A stretch of 64,000 nucleotides of DNA from an uncultured Spirochaetota bacterium (GTDB lineage: Bacteria; Spirochaetota; Brevinematia; Brevinematales; JAOACQ01): assembly GCA_963768055.1 (NCBI GenBank), contig CAVYGN010000002.1, forward strand, positions 256,001 through 320,000, in the 5' to 3' direction. The stretch's first letter is position 1. The number at the start of each line of letters is the position of its first letter. The notes under the pieces were generated by a model, which ran no database searches, was not told the DNA's origin, and saw only the letters and a program-made list of their open reading frames with translations. The position numbers and the translations under genes are program-made. This document shows positions 18,087-61,105 of this stretch, piece by piece.

Positions 18087-18360
18087 GGGCCGTTCAAACA
18101 ACAATTTTCTGGATGAAGTCAATTTTTATCTCGCATTTATAAAGAAAATGTAGAACTGCCATCGAAAAAAGGCGAAAGCAAGCACTTATCCAAGCAGCTC
18201 ATAGTATTATATCTACTCAATATATGAATATAAAAATTTCTTTATTAAAAAAGTATTCCATCCGTGCTTGCAGCCTTTTTGAGATGATGCAGTTCAAATT
18301 TTCGAATACCGCGAAATAAAAATTGACTCCATGCAAAGCCGGATGTTGTTTGAACTGCCC
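18087..18360. mobile_element. MITE-like element, family A (about 275 bp)
   Basis: Long imperfect terminal inverted repeats GGGC(C/A)GTTCAAACAACA...ATG(A/G)AGTCAATTTTTAT(C/T)TCGC; inverted homolog at 60814-61105. Confidence 0.75.
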
Positions 18361-45845: not shown

Positions 45846-45877
45846 TTTACAGGGAGACGCAGAGGCACGGAGAGGTT
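45846..45877 (+). repeat. Orphan left arm of the GxxExxY cassette-2 repeat family
   Basis: TTTACAGGGAGACGCAGAGGCACGGAGAG versus TTTACACAGAGGCACAGAGGAACGGAGAG at 48801. Confidence 0.7.
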
Positions 45878-45978: not shown

Positions 45979-46840
45979 ATGACAAAAAATGACCTCGCAT
46001 CGATCCCCGAAAAAAAGGCAAGGGAATGGTCGCTTGTCCTTTCAGCCATGAATATACCGCATGGCCGTGAACTACAAGGGGATGATTCGTCTGTAATTGT
46101 TCCTGAAACATCCCTTGAAGAATCATTAAAACAGATAGACCTATACGAACAGGAGAATAAAGTCGAAACCATAAAAGAATTTCCGCATACCTCGCCCCTG
46201 GCGTCGGTTCTCTCAGTATTCCTCACCCTTTTCATTTTCCAGACATTTCTCTACCGGACAGGTTCTTATGATGACTGGCTTAAGGCGGGAAATTCATCGA
46301 ACCTGGATATCAGGAACGGCGCATTCTGGAGAATTTTTACAGCAATGACGCTTCATGCCCGGCATGGCCCATTTCCTTTCAAACGCATTCATGGGCAGTG
46401 TTGTTTTTTACAGCCTTTTTTCCATAACCGGCTCCGGGATAGGCCTCTTCCTTGCAATAATGGCAGGTGCCGCCGGTAATCTGGCCACCGCTTTAATTTT
46501 ACCTTTGGAATACCACAGTATCGGGGCTTCCGGTTCGATATTCGGCGCTTTCGGCATCCTCGCCGCTTACAGGATCATCAGGAGTCCGGCACGGATCACA
46601 AAACCGGACTGGAAACCCGCCGCCGCCGCTCTGGCATTCCTGGGTTTCCTCGGCACAGCGGCAGGTTCCGACTTTTATGGGCATTTTTTTTCTCTTCTGG
46701 CCGGATTTTTGATAGGTTTTTCCGCGGCAGCGCTATCCCCGAAAGAGAAACTGCCGCCCGCGGGTTTACGGGCAGTATTCGCTATGCTGTCAATCATCGT
46801 AATAATTATTTCATGGTACATGGCCATGGATCGATTTTAA
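45979..46840 (+). pseudogene. Rhomboid intramembrane serine protease, +1 frameshift near 46360 (or sequence error)
   Basis: WRIFTAMTLHA then frame change to GMAHFLSN; GASG catalytic Ser motif; GHFF catalytic His. Confidence 0.8.
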
Positions 46841-46884
46841 TTAAAGGGCGGCCCTGCCGATCATTATATTATAGACAAAAAATC

Positions 46885-47407
46885 GAAACCACTGATTTCA
46901 CAGATGACACTGATTTTAATTTTTGAAGAATCAGTGTAATCGTTTTTTAATTATGAATATGAATAAATTAACTAATAATGATCCACGGACATATGAAATT
47001 ATTGGAGCGGCAATTAATGTCCATAAAGAAATGGGTTCGGGTTTTCTAGAAGCTATATATCAGGAATGTCTTGAAATTGAATTTAGGCTGAAGAAAATAC
47101 CATACGAATCACAACCATTGCTTAAGGTTTTCTATAAAGGTGAAGAATTGAAGAAGTATTACATACCTGATTTTATTATTTATGAACAAATAATTTTAGA
47201 AATAAAAGCAGAACGATACTTAACGAGAGTGGATGAAGCTCAAATCATAAACAGTCTAAAGAATTCTGGAAAGAAGGTAGGTTTACTTATTAACTTTGGA
47301 GAAAGTTCATTAAAATTTAAGCGGTTTGTTTATTAATATAGCTTTAATTATAATTTTGTACTGATTTCACAGAAATTATCAATGAAATCAGTGAAATCTG
47401 TGGTTTC
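46885..47407 (+). mobile_element. GxxExxY cassette 1: gene bracketed by 9-bp-periodic inverted repeats
   Basis: Left arm 46885-46914 matches the reverse complement of 47378-47407 at 25/30 positions. Confidence 0.6.
46953..47336 (+). CDS. GxxExxY protein (PD-(D/E)xK-type nuclease fold)
   Basis: IIGAAINVH..MGSGFLEAIY, PDF....IILEIK, AQIINSLK, GLLINFG. Confidence 0.92.
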   Translation: MNMNKLTNNDPRTYEIIGAAINVHKEMGSGFLEAIYQECLEIEFRLKKIPYESQPLLKVFYKGEELKKYYIPDFIIYEQIILEIKAERYLTRVDEAQIINSLKNSGKKVGLLINFGESSLKFKRFVY

Positions 47408-47454
47408 AACAGTTGATGATACAAAATATTTTTTCATTTGGATAAAATATTTTT

Positions 47455-48780
47455 ATGATTATTCGAAAATTACGAATCATTATTCCCGCAATATTTATAT
47501 ATTTATTCACAAGTTTATATGCCTCTCCTCCGACGCCATATAGCCAATCCGGGCTTTCAGGTCTTATCAAAGACCTCGTAATAATGAATCGTCTTGAAGA
47601 TTTTGACAGGCTGCGCCTTAATAACCCGGAAAGATTTTCAAACCTTGACCTGTGCGAGGGTTTTTATGAAACCGGCACCTCTTTTTACACTACAAAAAAA
47701 AGAATGCTGTCCCTTAAAACTTTTCTGAAAGGCGCTTTAATATTTCAGGACAGTCCGTATAAAGAGTACTGCATGCTCTACGCCGCGAAGATCTACTATC
47801 AGAAAAACAATAGGAACAGCGCCCTGTTTTATATCAACAGGGGCATTGAAATGGGCAATGCTGATAAATCATTCCTTGAAGAAGCTGAAAAGCTCAAGCG
47901 TAGGATCCGATGGGAATATATTGACAGCTCTGCCGGCCTGCCTGACAACAGCATCAGCGCTATCGGATTCGACGGAGACGATGTATGGATCGGAATGTGG
48001 GTGGGGGGATTATGCCGCTTTACAAGGAGTTCGCGAAAACTTACCAGATTTACTTCTGCCGGAGGGCTTATATCGGGTCATGTAAGGAGCCTGGCCGTTA
48101 CCAAAGACAGGGTATGGGTCGGCACTTACGAGGGCCTTTTCAGCTTCGACAAGAAGAGGGAAAAGTGGTCCAGGGAAAAAAGCGAACTCGGAAGCGTCCC
48201 AGTTAAACAGTTAAAAACGTTCGGCGGCAGGTTGTATGCCGCTACTCTCGGCAACGGGCTTTATATGCTTGACGGGATATCGTCAAGATGGAAGAGGATC
48301 TTTCATCAGGGGTCCCAGGTGAGCGACATTCTGCTCTCAGGAGGTATTCTTTATATCGCTACTCTTGACAGCGGTTTGTATATCCATAAGGATGGGACCG
48401 ATCTGAAGATACTGAGTGACTGCTCCCCTAAATCGATCTGCATGCACGGGGGTCTTCTCTGGGTGGGGACACATGGAAACGGCATTTTCCTGCTGGACTC
48501 TAAAAACTCTGTAGTCAAACATATAACAACGGCAAACGGCCTGACTTCGGATTACATCGAATCGGTCCGGGACAGGAATAACAGCGTTTTCATCGGGACT
48601 CTCGGCGGCGGCGCAATGTCGTACAATTTTTTATCGCGCCGCTGGTCTTTTGTCAGCGTCCTGGGCGGCCTGCCTTCGGACGACGTTGTAGATATCAATT
48701 TCGAGAAAAACAGGATATGGTTCGGGACGCTGTCCGGAGGGATAGGGATACTCTTGACGGAGAATTTTGACGATATTTAA
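47455..48780 (+). CDS. Secreted TPR-like plus beta-propeller protein (two-component-regulator propeller repeats)
   Basis: Signal peptide; GLPDNSISAI...VWIG, GLISGHVRSL..VWVGT, GLPSDDV...IWFGT repeats. Confidence 0.75.
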   Translation: MIIRKLRIIIPAIFIYLFTSLYASPPTPYSQSGLSGLIKDLVIMNRLEDFDRLRLNNPERFSNLDLCEGFYETGTSFYTTKKRMLSLKTFLKGALIFQDSPYKEYCMLYAAKIYYQKNNRNSALFYINRGIEMGNADKSFLEEAEKLKRRIRWEYIDSSAGLPDNSISAIGFDGDDVWIGMWVGGLCRFTRSSRKLTRFTSAGGLISGHVRSLAVTKDRVWVGTYEGLFSFDKKREKWSREKSELGSVPVKQLKTFGGRLYAATLGNGLYMLDGISSRWKRIFHQGSQVSDILLSGGILYIATLDSGLYIHKDGTDLKILSDCSPKSICMHGGLLWVGTHGNGIFLLDSKNSVVKHITTANGLTSDYIESVRDRNNSVFIGTLGGGAMSYNFLSRRWSFVSVLGGLPSDDVVDINFEKNRIWFGTLSGGIGILLTENFDDI

Positions 48781-48801
48781 ATTTATAAAAATAAACTGGT
48801 T

Positions 48802-49253
48802 TTACACAGAGGCACAGAGGAACGGAGAGTTTTATTGGAAACAAAAAAAACAGAAATTAATAAGCTTACTGAGAAAATAATAGGGCTAGTAATTGAAGTA
48901 CATCGTAACCTTGGTCCAGGTCTTCTAGAAAATGTTTATAAAAAATGTCTTTCTTATGAATTAAAGCAAGCTAAGATTGATTTTGAATTAGAAAAAGAAT
49001 TGCCAATTTATTACAAGGGTATAAAAATTGATTGCAATTATAGATTGGATATAATAATAAACAAAATACTAATTCTTGAATTAAAAAGTGTTGATAAATT
49101 AATGCCTGTTCATGAAGCTCAAATATTAACTTATATGAAACTTACCAATACGCCTGTTGGATTGCTTATTAATTTTAATGAAGCTATTGTTATAAATGGT
49201 ATAAAAAGGTTTTTATTAAAACAATAGCTCCGTGCCTCTGTGCCTCCGTGTAA
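48802..49253 (+). mobile_element. GxxExxY cassette 2: gene bracketed by 9-bp-periodic inverted repeats
   Basis: Left arm 48802-48827 matches the reverse complement of 49228-49253 at 24/26 positions; right arm begins immediately after the stop codon. Confidence 0.65.
48835..49227 (+). CDS. GxxExxY protein (PD-(D/E)xK-type nuclease fold)
   Basis: IEVHRNLGPGLLENVY, YRLDII...ILELKSV, HEAQILTYMKL, GLLINFN. Confidence 0.92.
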   Translation: METKKTEINKLTEKIIGLVIEVHRNLGPGLLENVYKKCLSYELKQAKIDFELEKELPIYYKGIKIDCNYRLDIIINKILILELKSVDKLMPVHEAQILTYMKLTNTPVGLLINFNEAIVINGIKRFLLKQ

Positions 49254-49314
49254 TCCTCCGAAGGCATTTATGGCAATATCTGGCAGAAATATATAATAAA
49301 GGTAAAGGTATTTT

Positions 49315-50868
49315 ATGAAACTTGCATTAAAGGAAGATATCTACCGGATCGATAGGGAATGCGCCGAGAAGTTCGGGCTGACGCCCCTGCTTTTGATGGA
49401 AAACGCCGGAGGCGCGGCTTATAATATCATTAAAGATGTTATCCCCGGATATAGGCAAAAGAAATTCCTTGTACTTTGCGGTCCGGGCAATAACGGAGGC
49501 GACGGAGCTGTACTTGCGCGGCGGTTGTTCTCTTCAGGGATAAATGTAAGGGTCATATACACCGGGTCGATGGAAAAAACCTCTTCCGAAGCCTCGATAA
49601 ATTTTTCTATAATCGAGAAAATCGGGGTTAAAATCAATAAGTTTCCTCCTGATTTTTCAGATCTAATTGAAGCAGCCGGACAGTGCGATGTAATGGTGGA
49701 TGCAATTTTCGGCATCGGGTTTCATGGCGAACCGGATGATCTCACAAAAAAAATCATCGATTCGATCAATAAATCGGGGAAAAAGGTGATATCCCTGGAC
49801 ATACCCTCGGGGCTCCAGGCGGACGGGCGGGCGTCGGGGCACTGCGTTAAAGCGGATTACACAATAACGTTCGGGCTCGCCAAGTTAGGAATGGCCGACT
49901 TTCCCGGAAGGGACCTGGCCGGAAAGATCCTTACCGACCCTATATCAATTCCGCCGAAATTACTGGAGGATCCTTCGATTAAAAACAATCTCATTACATT
50001 CGGCGATATTCAACACGCATATTCCCCAAGAAAACGCGACACAAATAAGGGGTCCTTCGGCCATCTCCTGATCGCCGGAGTGCAGATGAGCGGCGCTGTC
50101 ATTCTTGCCGGCGTAGGCGCCCTTAAATCCGGAACGGGACTCTTAACAATAGCCGCACCGGAAAAGATCTTACCGGCTATACGGAGAAAACTCCCGGAGG
50201 CTATAACCCTGCCCCTCAATGCGGACAATACAGAGGAAACCATCAAAATTCTGGGCGGTTTCATCAAGGAAAGAAAAATACGGACGGTCCTCGCAGGGAA
50301 CGGTTTCGGCACGGGGCCTTTCCAGAAATCTTTGATGCAATTTTTGCTGGCAAACGGCCAGCTTGAAAGACTCGTCATCGACGCCGACGGGCTTAACAAT
50401 ATAGCGGGCGACCGGGACCTGGCGCTTATGTTAAAAAACTCTAAGATGGATAAAATACTTACGCCTCATATCGGAGAGATGGCAAGGCTCCTCAATACTG
50501 ATAACTTGCGGGTAAAAAACAACAAGGCCGAATGCGCAAGACAATTTGCAAGGGAGTACAAGCTTTATCTCGTTTTAAAAGATGCGGTAAGCGTCATCGC
50601 CGAACCCCGGGGCGATATTTATATAAGCGATCGCGGCAGTTCAAGCCTTGCAAAGGGCGGGAGCGGGGACATTCTGGCGGGCATAATCTCAGGCCTATGG
50701 GCATCGGGCTATCCGCCCCTCGCGGCATGCCAGCTGGGAACCTATCTCCTTGGAAGGGCCGGAGAAAAATACGAGGAAAAATGGGGTGCGGAATCGGCAC
50801 TCGCAAGAGATATTTTGAGAGTTGTCCCGGCTGTTTTCTCTGAGATCAATCGGGGGATTTCCAGATAA
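49315..50868 (+). CDS. nnr: Bifunctional NAD(P)H-hydrate epimerase/dehydratase
   Basis: LMENAG, GPGNNGGDG, DIPSG, DADGL, TPHIGEMARL, GGSGDILAG. Confidence 0.92.
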   Translation: MKLALKEDIYRIDRECAEKFGLTPLLLMENAGGAAYNIIKDVIPGYRQKKFLVLCGPGNNGGDGAVLARRLFSSGINVRVIYTGSMEKTSSEASINFSIIEKIGVKINKFPPDFSDLIEAAGQCDVMVDAIFGIGFHGEPDDLTKKIIDSINKSGKKVISLDIPSGLQADGRASGHCVKADYTITFGLAKLGMADFPGRDLAGKILTDPISIPPKLLEDPSIKNNLITFGDIQHAYSPRKRDTNKGSFGHLLIAGVQMSGAVILAGVGALKSGTGLLTIAAPEKILPAIRRKLPEAITLPLNADNTEETIKILGGFIKERKIRTVLAGNGFGTGPFQKSLMQFLLANGQLERLVIDADGLNNIAGDRDLALMLKNSKMDKILTPHIGEMARLLNTDNLRVKNNKAECARQFAREYKLYLVLKDAVSVIAEPRGDIYISDRGSSSLAKGGSGDILAGIISGLWASGYPPLAACQLGTYLLGRAGEKYEEKWGAESALARDILRVVPAVFSEINRGISR

Positions 50869-52493: not shown

Positions 52494-52661
52494 TATTCTA
52501 AAATAATTTTTATCTGTTGTCAAGCAAGAGAATTGCATCAAGGGATAAGGCTGCCGGAAAGCGATACAAGCTGCGCCATCTCCGTGTTCATTGGCGTGGC
52601 TTAGCGGAAAACCTCAGAAGCTACGCTAATATAGCGTTGAATTGTAACAAATAATAATACT

Positions 52662-60813: not shown

Positions 60814-61105
60814 GGAAGCCGTTCAAACAACATACTGTCTGTATGAAGTCAATTTTTATCGAGCAGCACTTGAGAGCTTGAGCCGTATCAGCTCAAAACG
60901 GCTGCAAGCGTAACTCAACCGCTCATTGAAAGTTTTTAAGCAAAGAAATATTTTTTTTATTATCAATTTAAATAATAAATACAATGAGCGGTCTCGGACA
61001 AAGCGCTTGCTTTTCGCCGTTTTTTCGCTGACGGCTTCTACGCTCTCTTCGTAAGGCTCGATAAAAATTGCTTCATAAAAGATTGTATATTGTTTCGAAT
61101 CCGGC
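60814..61105. mobile_element. MITE-like element, family A (inverted relative to the 18087 copy)
   Basis: GCCGTTCAAACAACA...ATGAAGTCAATTTTTATCGAGC paired with GCTCGATAAAAATTGCTTCAT; interior homologous to 18150-18300. Confidence 0.72.

Follow-up and report, generated by a model that had tools for sequence, protein, structure and literature searches.

Background

Open reading frames (ORFs) enclosed by terminal inverted repeats are known from the intervening sequences (IVSs) of bacterial 23S rRNA genes. The IVS of Coxiella burnetii, 428 nt long, carries an S23p ORF and is closed by a terminal stem of 28 bp. It contains three tandem GACAGAT heptamers whose copy number varies between strains, and is cut by RNase III at sites mapped within the stem (PMC4990558). 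In the same paper the function and origin of the IVS are called unclear, and an old proposal is cited according to which the ORF might serve mobility (PMC4990558). A comparable layout is described here from a 64,000-nt stretch of the genome of an uncultured Spirochaetota bacterium (contig CAVYGN010000002.1, positions 256,001 to 320,000; hereafter the window), in which two genes of the GxxExxY (PDDEXK_3) family, separated by a single host gene, each lie between inverted arrays of short words, here termed arms. The source genome (G000) comprises 3.69 Mb in two contigs (C1 and C2), with a G+C content of 41 % and a completeness of 94.75 %, and encodes five GxxExxY proteins. The units formed by these genes and their arms, termed cassettes, are judged to have a slightly better than even chance of being copies of a hairpin-armed insertion cassette, a selfish element which occupies short spacers between co-transcribed host genes and whose nuclease recognises the arms and mobilises them in trans. 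They form a widespread, cross-phylum class that is apparently undescribed; no description of GxxExxY/PDDEXK_3 genes with such arms was found in the literature, with subscription journals and preprint supplements lying outside the search.

Among the described systems, the closest is the 23S rRNA IVS, with its tandem-heptamer stem around an S23p ORF. The ORF-bearing IVSs of Coxiella, Leptospira and others share with the present cassettes an ORF of about 120-130 aa, an insert of 430-520 nt, terminal inverted repeats and a stem of about 28 bp, as well as a 5' arm of tandem heptamers and a sporadic distribution, and the IVS is transcribed within the host RNA. Unlike the IVSs, the cassettes carry a PD-(D/E)XK ORF in place of the S23p (PF05635) four-helix bundle, and many gene-less and other-cargo copies exist in one genome. 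They are located in spacers of protein genes rather than in helix 45 of the 23S rRNA, with both cassettes of the window situated between protein-coding genes and not within an rRNA gene. Furthermore, the unit period is 8-10 nt, as opposed to the contiguous heptamers of Coxiella. S23p (PF05635) ORFs also occur in relatives of the source genome, where they are enclosed by inverted arrays whose short units are their own (GTCGAAA-like and TAGGATT-like). Two of these S23p cassettes are situated in rRNA operons, one between a tRNA-like sequence and a 23S-like start (L165, G009:C5) and the other just upstream of a 5S-like sequence (L167, G025:C108), these identities having been assigned by eye. Since the layout is common to two unrelated ORF families, a common element class is favoured. 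S23p genes sharing the same arms within the source genome were considered and rejected, as no PF05635 match was found in this genome and the S23p genes of the relatives have units of their own.

Similarities with three further types of system can also be distinguished. As in the systems of repetitive extragenic palindromes (REPs), their hairpin-forming doublets (REPINs) and REP-associated tyrosine transposases (RAYTs), the repeat flanks a few copies of the gene and is present in intergenic spacers as many palindromic copies that lack the gene, the repeat type tracks the enzyme clade, and repeats occur mostly in genomes that hold the gene. The enzyme fold is a different one, RAYT (TnpA-REP) being an HUH Y1 enzyme, and the arms are arrays of tandem words and not a single REP palindrome, while the gene is present in several diverged copies that have spread horizontally, and other cargo is carried. 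A RAYT as the mover of the arms was rejected, as the source genome contains no PF01797 (Y1_Tnp) match. With integron cassettes the units share small, mostly promoterless, varied and co-oriented ORFs bounded by hairpin-forming imperfect palindromes, and a gene loss that leaves one hairpin, but they are scattered singly and not in an array, the ORF lies within the hairpin loop and the arms consist of tandem words. No recombinase or integrase, attI site or cassette array was found beside the units, no IntI or attC model having been run genome-wide, and no GTTRRRY, the attC core consensus, was seen in the arms by eye. Finally, the enclosure of passenger DNA by terminal inverted repeats some 30-65 bp long is shared with miniature inverted-repeat transposable elements (MITEs) and mobile insertion cassettes. 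Like MITEs, the units have many short non-coding copies and presence/absence differences between relatives; unlike MITEs, they had no cognate insertion sequence (IS) or transposase that could be found, and no target duplication was seen.

Insertion status in relatives and metagenomes

The locus was fetched from 19 relatives using the propeller protein encoded between the two cassettes as probe, with the same-genus relatives represented by the genomes G001-G004. The spacer between the propeller gene and nnr, which measures 534 nt in the source genome, is only 37, 17, 44 and 14 nt long in the four same-genus relatives, and that between the rhomboid and propeller genes measures approximately 50 nt in G001 and G002 versus 614 nt in the source genome, with the rhomboid-propeller junction of G003 being likewise free of GxxExxY. 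No GxxExxY match occurs in the propeller locus of any of the 19 relatives, and in seven more distant relatives the propeller gene adjoins nnr with GxxExxY missing. The remaining three cassettes of the source genome present the same picture. A spacer of 17-53 nt in 4/4 relatives corresponds to the 610 nt at C1:1532, and one of 17-29 nt in 2/3 relatives to the 602 nt at C1:1510, where the third has another neighbour, while the gene upstream of cassette C1:1559 is not followed by GxxExxY in 4/4 relatives; in total, 0/11 of the orthologous loci of these three cassettes contain GxxExxY. All five GxxExxY cassettes of the source genome are recent, lineage-specific insertions. A preliminary description of the window had suggested a search for empty sites at the rhomboid-propeller and propeller-nnr junctions, and had viewed gene and arms as one inserted unit; the junctions are indeed empty in the same-genus relatives, with gene and arms absent together from their sites.

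Seven metagenome runs, all of DNA and none of RNA, match parts of the stretch, and four of these (X1-X4), from peat and sediment samples, were compared as contigs. A 629-nt contig of run X3, which differs at 3 of 274 and 6 of 328 aligned nt, follows the rhomboid gene side up to position 46904 and resumes at 47386. The 27 nt in between begin with 12 nt identical to 47374-47385, followed by 15 extra bases. The contig of run X1 has the same gene-less form, with a loose end that consists of the left flank up to GAAACC and then continues at 47360; this run also covers the cassette 2 gene and right arm, on into nnr. The breakpoints of the gene-less allele fall inside a 14-bp direct repeat (46891-46904 = 47360-47373). 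Runs X2 and X4 contain pieces of the gene-bearing form at 100 % identity, and the coverage gaps in the contigs of X2-X4 are uninformative. A strain which is approximately 98 % identical has retained both cassette 1 arms as a single short hairpin, with the gene missing. The presence or absence of the gene between retained arms differs among near-identical strains, with which both loss and gain are compatible.

The GxxExxY protein

Both proteins of the window match the PF13366 (PDDEXK_3) profile, with E values of 7e-37 (126.9 bits) for gene 1 and 9e-43 (145.9 bits) for gene 2 at a cut-off of 22, and the TIGR04256 (GxxExxY) profile, with E values of 1.5e-39 (134.9 bits) and 5e-44 (149.3 bits), respectively, at a cut-off of 35. 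They share 40-41 % amino acid identity, in agreement with their earlier characterisation as clearly diverged, and the closest paralog of gene 1, at C1:1510222, is 80 % identical to it. In an alignment of 61 sequences, comprising the five from the source genome and 56 of 80 loci sampled from other genomes (truncated ones and two with stops were excluded), the residues E32, D72, Q96 and N113 are invariant, while E82 and K84 are conserved in at least 90 % of the sequences. The AlphaFold2 model of the gene 2 protein (predicted local distance difference test score, pLDDT, 94.4; predicted template modelling score, pTM, 0.87) displays the order of elements expected of a PD-(D/E)XK fold. The top structural matches are all PD-(D/E)XK nucleases, including Cas4 SSO0001, restriction-endonuclease-like proteins, BpuSI, CinB, HsdR and Hjc (Z 5-7.8), and a tRNA-splicing endonuclease is also among the matches. 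A PDB sequence search with a five-sequence profile gave no match at E ≤ 0.01. The PD-(D/E)xK assignment of the preliminary description is thus borne out by profile matches, conserved motif, model and structural matches alike, and on the modelled structure the protein has a PD-(D/E)XK nuclease fold with an intact D...ExK site, which can be regarded as settled with respect to fold. In a 2012 survey of PD-(D/E)XK families, the function of PDDEXK_3 is listed as 'Unknown', with mixed clades and multiple transfers (PMC3424549).

Arm families and their cargo in the source genome

The ends of the cassettes share a general anatomy, in which each usually comprises three 7-nt words of the type C(A/G)CNNA(G/T), spaced at 8-10 nt and with the outermost often preceded by (C/A)AC, and in which the two arrays are inverted relative to one another. 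The arm score, which measures the inverted repeat in the flanks, lies between 15 and 20 at 5/5 GxxExxY genes of the source genome whereas none of 1500 randomly chosen places with matching geometry scored higher than the maximum of 13, and chance can thus be excluded. Genome-wide, 67 CACNGAT doublets are present versus none for a reversed-pattern control. With a looser unit definition, arrays of at least three periodic units number 46 versus two in the reversed-pattern control, and doublets alone are noisy (197 versus 89 in the control). Oriented copies share about 60 nt, in which (T)G(R)AAC is followed by three units, a short loop, a single inverted unit and finally an AT-rich tail such as CATATAAAATTA. 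Further arm families in this genome have CACRGAG and CGCAAAG/CGCTAAG units.

Most arm copies in the source genome occur without a GxxExxY gene. Nineteen convergent arm pairs were found, one of which (C2:301858-305250) is spurious. The 18 real pairs enclose GxxExxY (five), other ORFs (nine), no ORF of at least 50 aa (three; a 60-bp hairpin and two inserts with interiors of 112 and 286 nt) or an IS21-like element (one). All pair interiors have a G+C content of 19-31 %, except for that with the IS21-like element (41 %). The other cargo includes a Hol_Tox-like protein of 119 aa, a D12-methylase-like ORF, small membrane proteins and an AAA_15/AAA_21 ATPase pair. The last of these is a two-gene cargo between CACAGAT arms (L135, G000:C1:1098738-1100935), which is AT-rich and encodes the ATPase (452 aa) together with a 258-aa product without Pfam match; the two resemble a small two-gene defence system. 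A search of 40 relatives for homologues of the ATPase cargo gave none at E ≤ 1e-10. Two paralogs of the 119-aa cargo exist in the source genome, of which one, a pseudogene, has both arms and one has the right arm; its homologues in G001 and G003 have no arms within the examined DNA, although the G001 contig starts 207 nt upstream. The IS21-like element (G000:C1:109745-112333) has about ten other copies, is 2589 bp long with ORFs of 513 and 248 aa, and its copies are 99.8-100 % identical. The possibility that the arms are the ends of this element was rejected, since its 2589-bp copies end well inside the arms and its own ends are unrelated.

Three of the 13 arm sites without GxxExxY were compared with G001-G004. 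At the site of the 60-bp hairpin, 4/4 relatives have 12-112 nt free of arms, while G004 and G003 lack a 334-bp non-coding element, and G002 lacks the Hol_Tox-like cassette. Gene-less copies and those with other cargo are thus insertions as well. Unexpectedly, a different, gene-less element with CGCTAAG arms occupies the spacer of the non-coding element in G001 (L146, orthologous to G000:C1:477002) and that of the Hol_Tox-like cassette in G004 (L154, C2:149582), and the latter genome contains 289 doublets of the CGCKAAK pattern, which includes this family. The non-coding element of the source genome also contains end-like CTTTGCGGTGAA words of another arm family. The occurrence of different arm families in orthologous spacers means that these spacers are hit repeatedly, or that the elements land on one another.

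The preliminary description had regarded gene and arms as a self-contained unit with its own ends. This view is not supported as it stands, since the arms belong to genome-wide families of which most copies are gene-less, with nine other cargoes and three inserts without an ORF enclosed by them. It had also held that arms found genome-wide independently of GxxExxY genes would count against it. Such arms exist and contradict private ends, but do not refute mobility, because a REP/RAYT-like or MITE-like family would show them as well. The notion of protein-specific ends has to be widened to multi-copy arm families that go with particular nuclease clades, as set out below, and enclose other cargo as well.

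Arms and nuclease across genomes and phyla

Three arm patterns were summed over 41 genomes, which were divided into arm-rich (at least 20 doublets; 12 genomes) and arm-poor (29 genomes). GxxExxY genes above the cut-off occur in 9/12 arm-rich versus 3/29 arm-poor genomes (Fisher 1e-4, which is overstated as kin are not independent). The arm-poor G003 holds GxxExxY with CGCAGAT arms, which lie outside the three search patterns, and neither G001 nor G002 contains any CACNGAT doublet.

The generality of the layout was evaluated with the sample of 80 loci from at least ten phyla (Bacteroidota, Acidobacteriota, Pseudomonadota, Chloroflexota, Planctomycetota, Ignavibacteriota and others), 76 of which have flanks of 150 nt. 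Such cassettes occur in many Flavobacterium genomes. As had been anticipated in the preliminary description, inverted repeats are enriched around GxxExxY genes across genomes, with 59/76 loci scoring above the 95th percentile of a control of the same geometry shifted by 520 nt (median score 16 versus 8; the control maximum of 28 probably derives from neighbouring elements). Chains of at least two units are present in 160/190 arms (95 genes), with exactly three units in 104 of them. Successive units are spaced at 8 nt in 137 cases, 9 nt in 70 and 10 nt in 42. In 73/160 arms, CAC or AAC stands before the first unit, and inner units mostly follow AGA or AGG. In terms of orientation, 52/66 loci are co-oriented with both neighbours, three are antisense to both and eleven lie between diverging or converging genes, in a count based on a crude ORF rule and on intact genes only, by which decayed antisense copies may be missed.

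On a quick protein tree (93/95 proteins with lengths of 100-160 aa, 131 columns, many forks unresolved), 35 changes suffice for the arm-unit labels, as compared with 50.3 ± 1.5 over 300 shuffles, none of which needed fewer than 46. The co-phylogeny of arms and protein put forward earlier is thus upheld insofar as arm type follows protein clade, but is confounded by host phylum. The within-genome contrast between arms and clades in the source genome is cleaner than this whole-tree signal. Its three CACAGAT-armed proteins belong to one genus-specific clade starred on the tree (97), in which the sisters from G003 and G004 have CGCAGAT, CGCTAAG and CGCGAAG arms. The CGCAAAG-armed protein falls in another starred clade (95) together with proteins from Pseudomonadota, Chloroflexota and Planctomycetota, a clade in which 5/6 have xxCAAAG arms, while the cassette 2 protein is placed elsewhere on the tree, outside both starred clades.

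Anatomy of the two cassettes and their surroundings

The features of the two cassettes and of two solo arrays in the window are listed in Table 1. Both arm pairs of the preliminary description, with 25/30 and 24/26 matches, were reproduced by repeat search. The 30-nt inverted repeat of cassette 1 is 83 % complementary with its halves 463 nt apart, and the 26-nt repeat of cassette 2 is 92 % complementary with its halves 400 nt apart. The approximately three 9-bp units per arm that had been noted are likewise present, with a period of 9 in cassette 1 (left-arm units starting at 46890, 46899 and 46908) and of 8-9 in cassette 2 (48805, 48813 and ~48821). Cassette 2 is without the inner hairpins present in cassette 1. 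The G+C content inside the GxxExxY cassettes is 25-30 %, as opposed to that of the genome given above.

Table 1. Positions in the window of the cassettes, their parts and solo arm arrays
Feature	Position	Strand	Basis
Cassette 1, whole (523 bp: arm, nuclease gene, arm)	46885..47407	+	Inverted-repeat search; 28 % G+C inside
Cassette 1, left arm: GAAACC, then units CACTGAT, CACAGAT, CACTGAT, period 9	46885..46914	+	Repeat search
Cassette 1, inner inverted unit; local pairing with third left-arm unit gives predicted end hairpin	46927..46941	+	Repeat search and predicted fold
GxxExxY gene 1, 127 aa from ATG; upstream TTG at 46923 possible	46953..47336	+	PF13366, TIGR04256
Inner direct copy (14/14) of left-arm 46891-46904; breakpoint of gene-less allele	47360..47373	+	Direct-repeat search and metagenome contigs
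Cassette 1, right arm: inverted units, GGTTTC at end	47378..47407	+	Repeat search
Cassette 2, whole (452 bp)	48802..49253	+	Inverted-repeat search
Cassette 2, left arm: TTA, then CACAGAG, CACAGAG, (A)ACGGAG	48802..48827	+	Repeat search
GxxExxY gene 2, 130 aa, TTG start	48835..49227	+	PF13366, TIGR04256, AlphaFold2 model
Cassette 2, right arm, directly 3' of stop codon	49228..49253	+	Repeat search
Solo arm-like array (CGCAGAG, CACGGAG) upstream of rhomboid gene, no partner found nearby	45853..45875	+	Unit search
Solo arm of third family (CGCTAAG, CGCCAAT, CACGGAG), no partner nearby	52580..52612	-	Unit search

The rhomboid gene lies 5' of cassette 1, the 441-aa Reg_prop/beta-propeller protein is encoded between the cassettes (47455-48780) and a YjeF_N/Carb_kinase (nnr) gene lies 3' of cassette 2. 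The co-orientation claimed in the preliminary description was confirmed, all three neighbours and both GxxExxY genes being on the + strand. As had also been stated there, neither a transposase nor a target duplication is visible: no transposase was found within either unit, and inspection of the junctions by eye showed no target-site duplication; the relatives' intergenic DNA has diverged too far for the ends to be placed exactly.

In predicted RNA folds the arms of both cassettes pair across the whole ORF, in the minimum free energy (MFE) as well as the centroid structures. The predicted fold is more stable than 100/100 shuffles for cassette 2 (z -4.4; 0/100 shuffles as good) and than all but one for cassette 1 (z -1.9; 1/100). 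In cassette 2, 7 nt separate the left arm from the start codon, and the sole GGAG-like words in this region belong to that arm, so that the predicted stem would cover the ribosome-binding region. An Rfam scan of 46500-49600 at E ≤ 1 returned only a chance snoRNA match (24.5 bits versus a gathering score of 88).

Two further features of the window were observed. The rhomboid gene is split over two overlapping frames (45979-46479 and 46355-46840) and is a single continuous gene in relatives; the frame shift (46340-46370) is close to a CCC run at ~46358-46360 and may represent a real frameshift or an assembly error. A MITE-like element measuring approximately 220 bp and bounded by inverted repeats of the TATGGAGTCAATTTTTATCTCGC type, each about 22 bp long, is found at 18113-18332 and ~60850-61070 (C2:274113-274332 and 316850-317070), and at least 25 pairs like it, with interiors of 170-195 nt, were returned by a genome-wide inverted-repeat scan.

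Proposed mechanism and alternative explanations

From the anatomy, the distribution and the IVS precedent, a mechanism can be inferred in which the nuclease acts on the arms, genes are lost by recombination between unit repeats and transcripts are processed by RNase III. The GxxExxY protein would be the family's own mobility or maintenance enzyme, recognising the unit arrays or their hairpin, and would mobilise gene-less and other-cargo copies in trans, as is thought for RAYTs and REPINs. Recombination between direct unit repeats may delete the gene and leave a solo hairpin. The cargo lies in the sense of the host operon and is therefore probably read from host transcripts, in which a long stem would form between the arms and, as with the 23S rRNA IVS, probably be cleaved by RNase III, which would limit the harm to the host operon. 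A more specific version, which is considered unlikely as it stands, has GxxExxY as a structure-specific homing or maintenance enzyme. It would cut the short-looped, gene-less hairpin, which is able to fold back or extrude, and spare gene-loaded loops, and the break would be repaired from a gene-bearing copy by means of arm homology, whereby solo hairpins are reloaded and any arm-bounded DNA may be copied into other hairpins.

Several observations weigh against the interpretation as a selfish cassette mobilised by its nuclease. The gene-less allele, with its 15 extra loop bases, cannot be fully accounted for by a single clean deletion from the form found in the source genome. As the same layout occurs with the S23p ORF, which is not a nuclease, the nuclease is not needed for the layout, and as most arm pairs of the source genome carry other cargo, it could be only the commonest passenger. 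The structural matches of the protein are generic, with none standing out (Foldseek best E 1.7e-3; VIA Z ≤ 7.8), and three arm-rich genomes, G001 (96 % complete), G008 (99 %) and G025 (73 %), are without a GxxExxY gene that could be found. Host-phylum labels cluster on the protein tree too (38 changes versus 63.2 ± 2.0), and are confounded with the arm signal. Furthermore, the excess of G.U over A.C among arm mismatches on the sense strand is weak (79 versus 51, p 0.018, among loci scoring at least 13).

This slight excess of G.U-compatible mismatches is among the points in favour of an explanation at the level of RNA only, in which the arms form a stem removed by RNase III, GxxExxY has an unrelated role in the cell or in defence, and the units spread by unrelated means. 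The long-range stem closed by the arms in the MFE and centroid folds, the strong bias towards the sense orientation (52 to 3) and the S23p cassettes of the same layout in rRNA operon spacers of G009 and G025 point in the same direction, as does the cutting of such a stem by RNase III in Coxiella (PMC4990558). A low probability is nevertheless assigned to it, in that it leaves unexplained how the units reach new sites, as well as the gene-less hairpin insertions and the match between arms and protein clades. In a further alternative, the hairpins would be attC-like exchange sites of a cassette system that is integrase-free or relies on an unknown recombinase. This recombinase or a host pathway would insert and excise any cargo between two hairpins, of which GxxExxY would merely be the most frequent. 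In cassette 1 and most CACAGAT ends, each end is in itself a hairpin, with three units on the outside and, beyond a loop, a single inverted one on the inside, and the gene-less allele equals the one hairpin that would remain after recombination between two. The cargo is varied, including the ATPase pair and the Hol_Tox-like, D12 methylase-like and small membrane proteins, and one cargo family recurs, armed at a second site in the source genome and with one arm at a third. However, the cassettes are scattered singly without arrays, no integrase is found beside them, cassette 2 has no inner hairpins and the nuclease is the sole cargo that recurs across phyla, and such a system is thus held to be quite improbable.

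The arms could also be host repeats of a REP-like, regulatory or terminator nature, between which AT-rich foreign genes accumulate because insertions are tolerated in such spacers, with the arms themselves lying outside the moving unit. Arms of several families do cluster together, and the same intergenic sites have different arm families in different species (G001, G004). Against this stand the joint absence of arms and gene in relatives, the complete lack of CACNGAT doublets in G001 and G002, and the same packaging in at least ten phyla with arms that track the protein clade, which together make this explanation very improbable.

Significance

The GxxExxY/PF13366 proteins form a very large bacterial family, for which a DNA partner, in the form of inverted arrays of 7-nt words, and the presence/absence polymorphism of the gene provide a testable role. 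A widespread class of small insertions inside operons has been identified, which is linked to a question dating from about 1990, namely the origin and movement of ORF-bearing rRNA IVSs. For genome annotation, many 'orphan' genes of AT-rich composition and many hairpins in intergenic DNA find an explanation in the arms, and the ATPase pair among the cargo suggests that the arms may serve as an exchange route for small accessory genes. Should the homing or maintenance version of the mechanism be true, the cassettes would represent a gene-cassette system that works without an integrase, is scattered along the chromosome and also carries defence-like and membrane-protein genes, and would supply the long-missing DNA-level mobility mechanism for the IVSs of rRNA genes.

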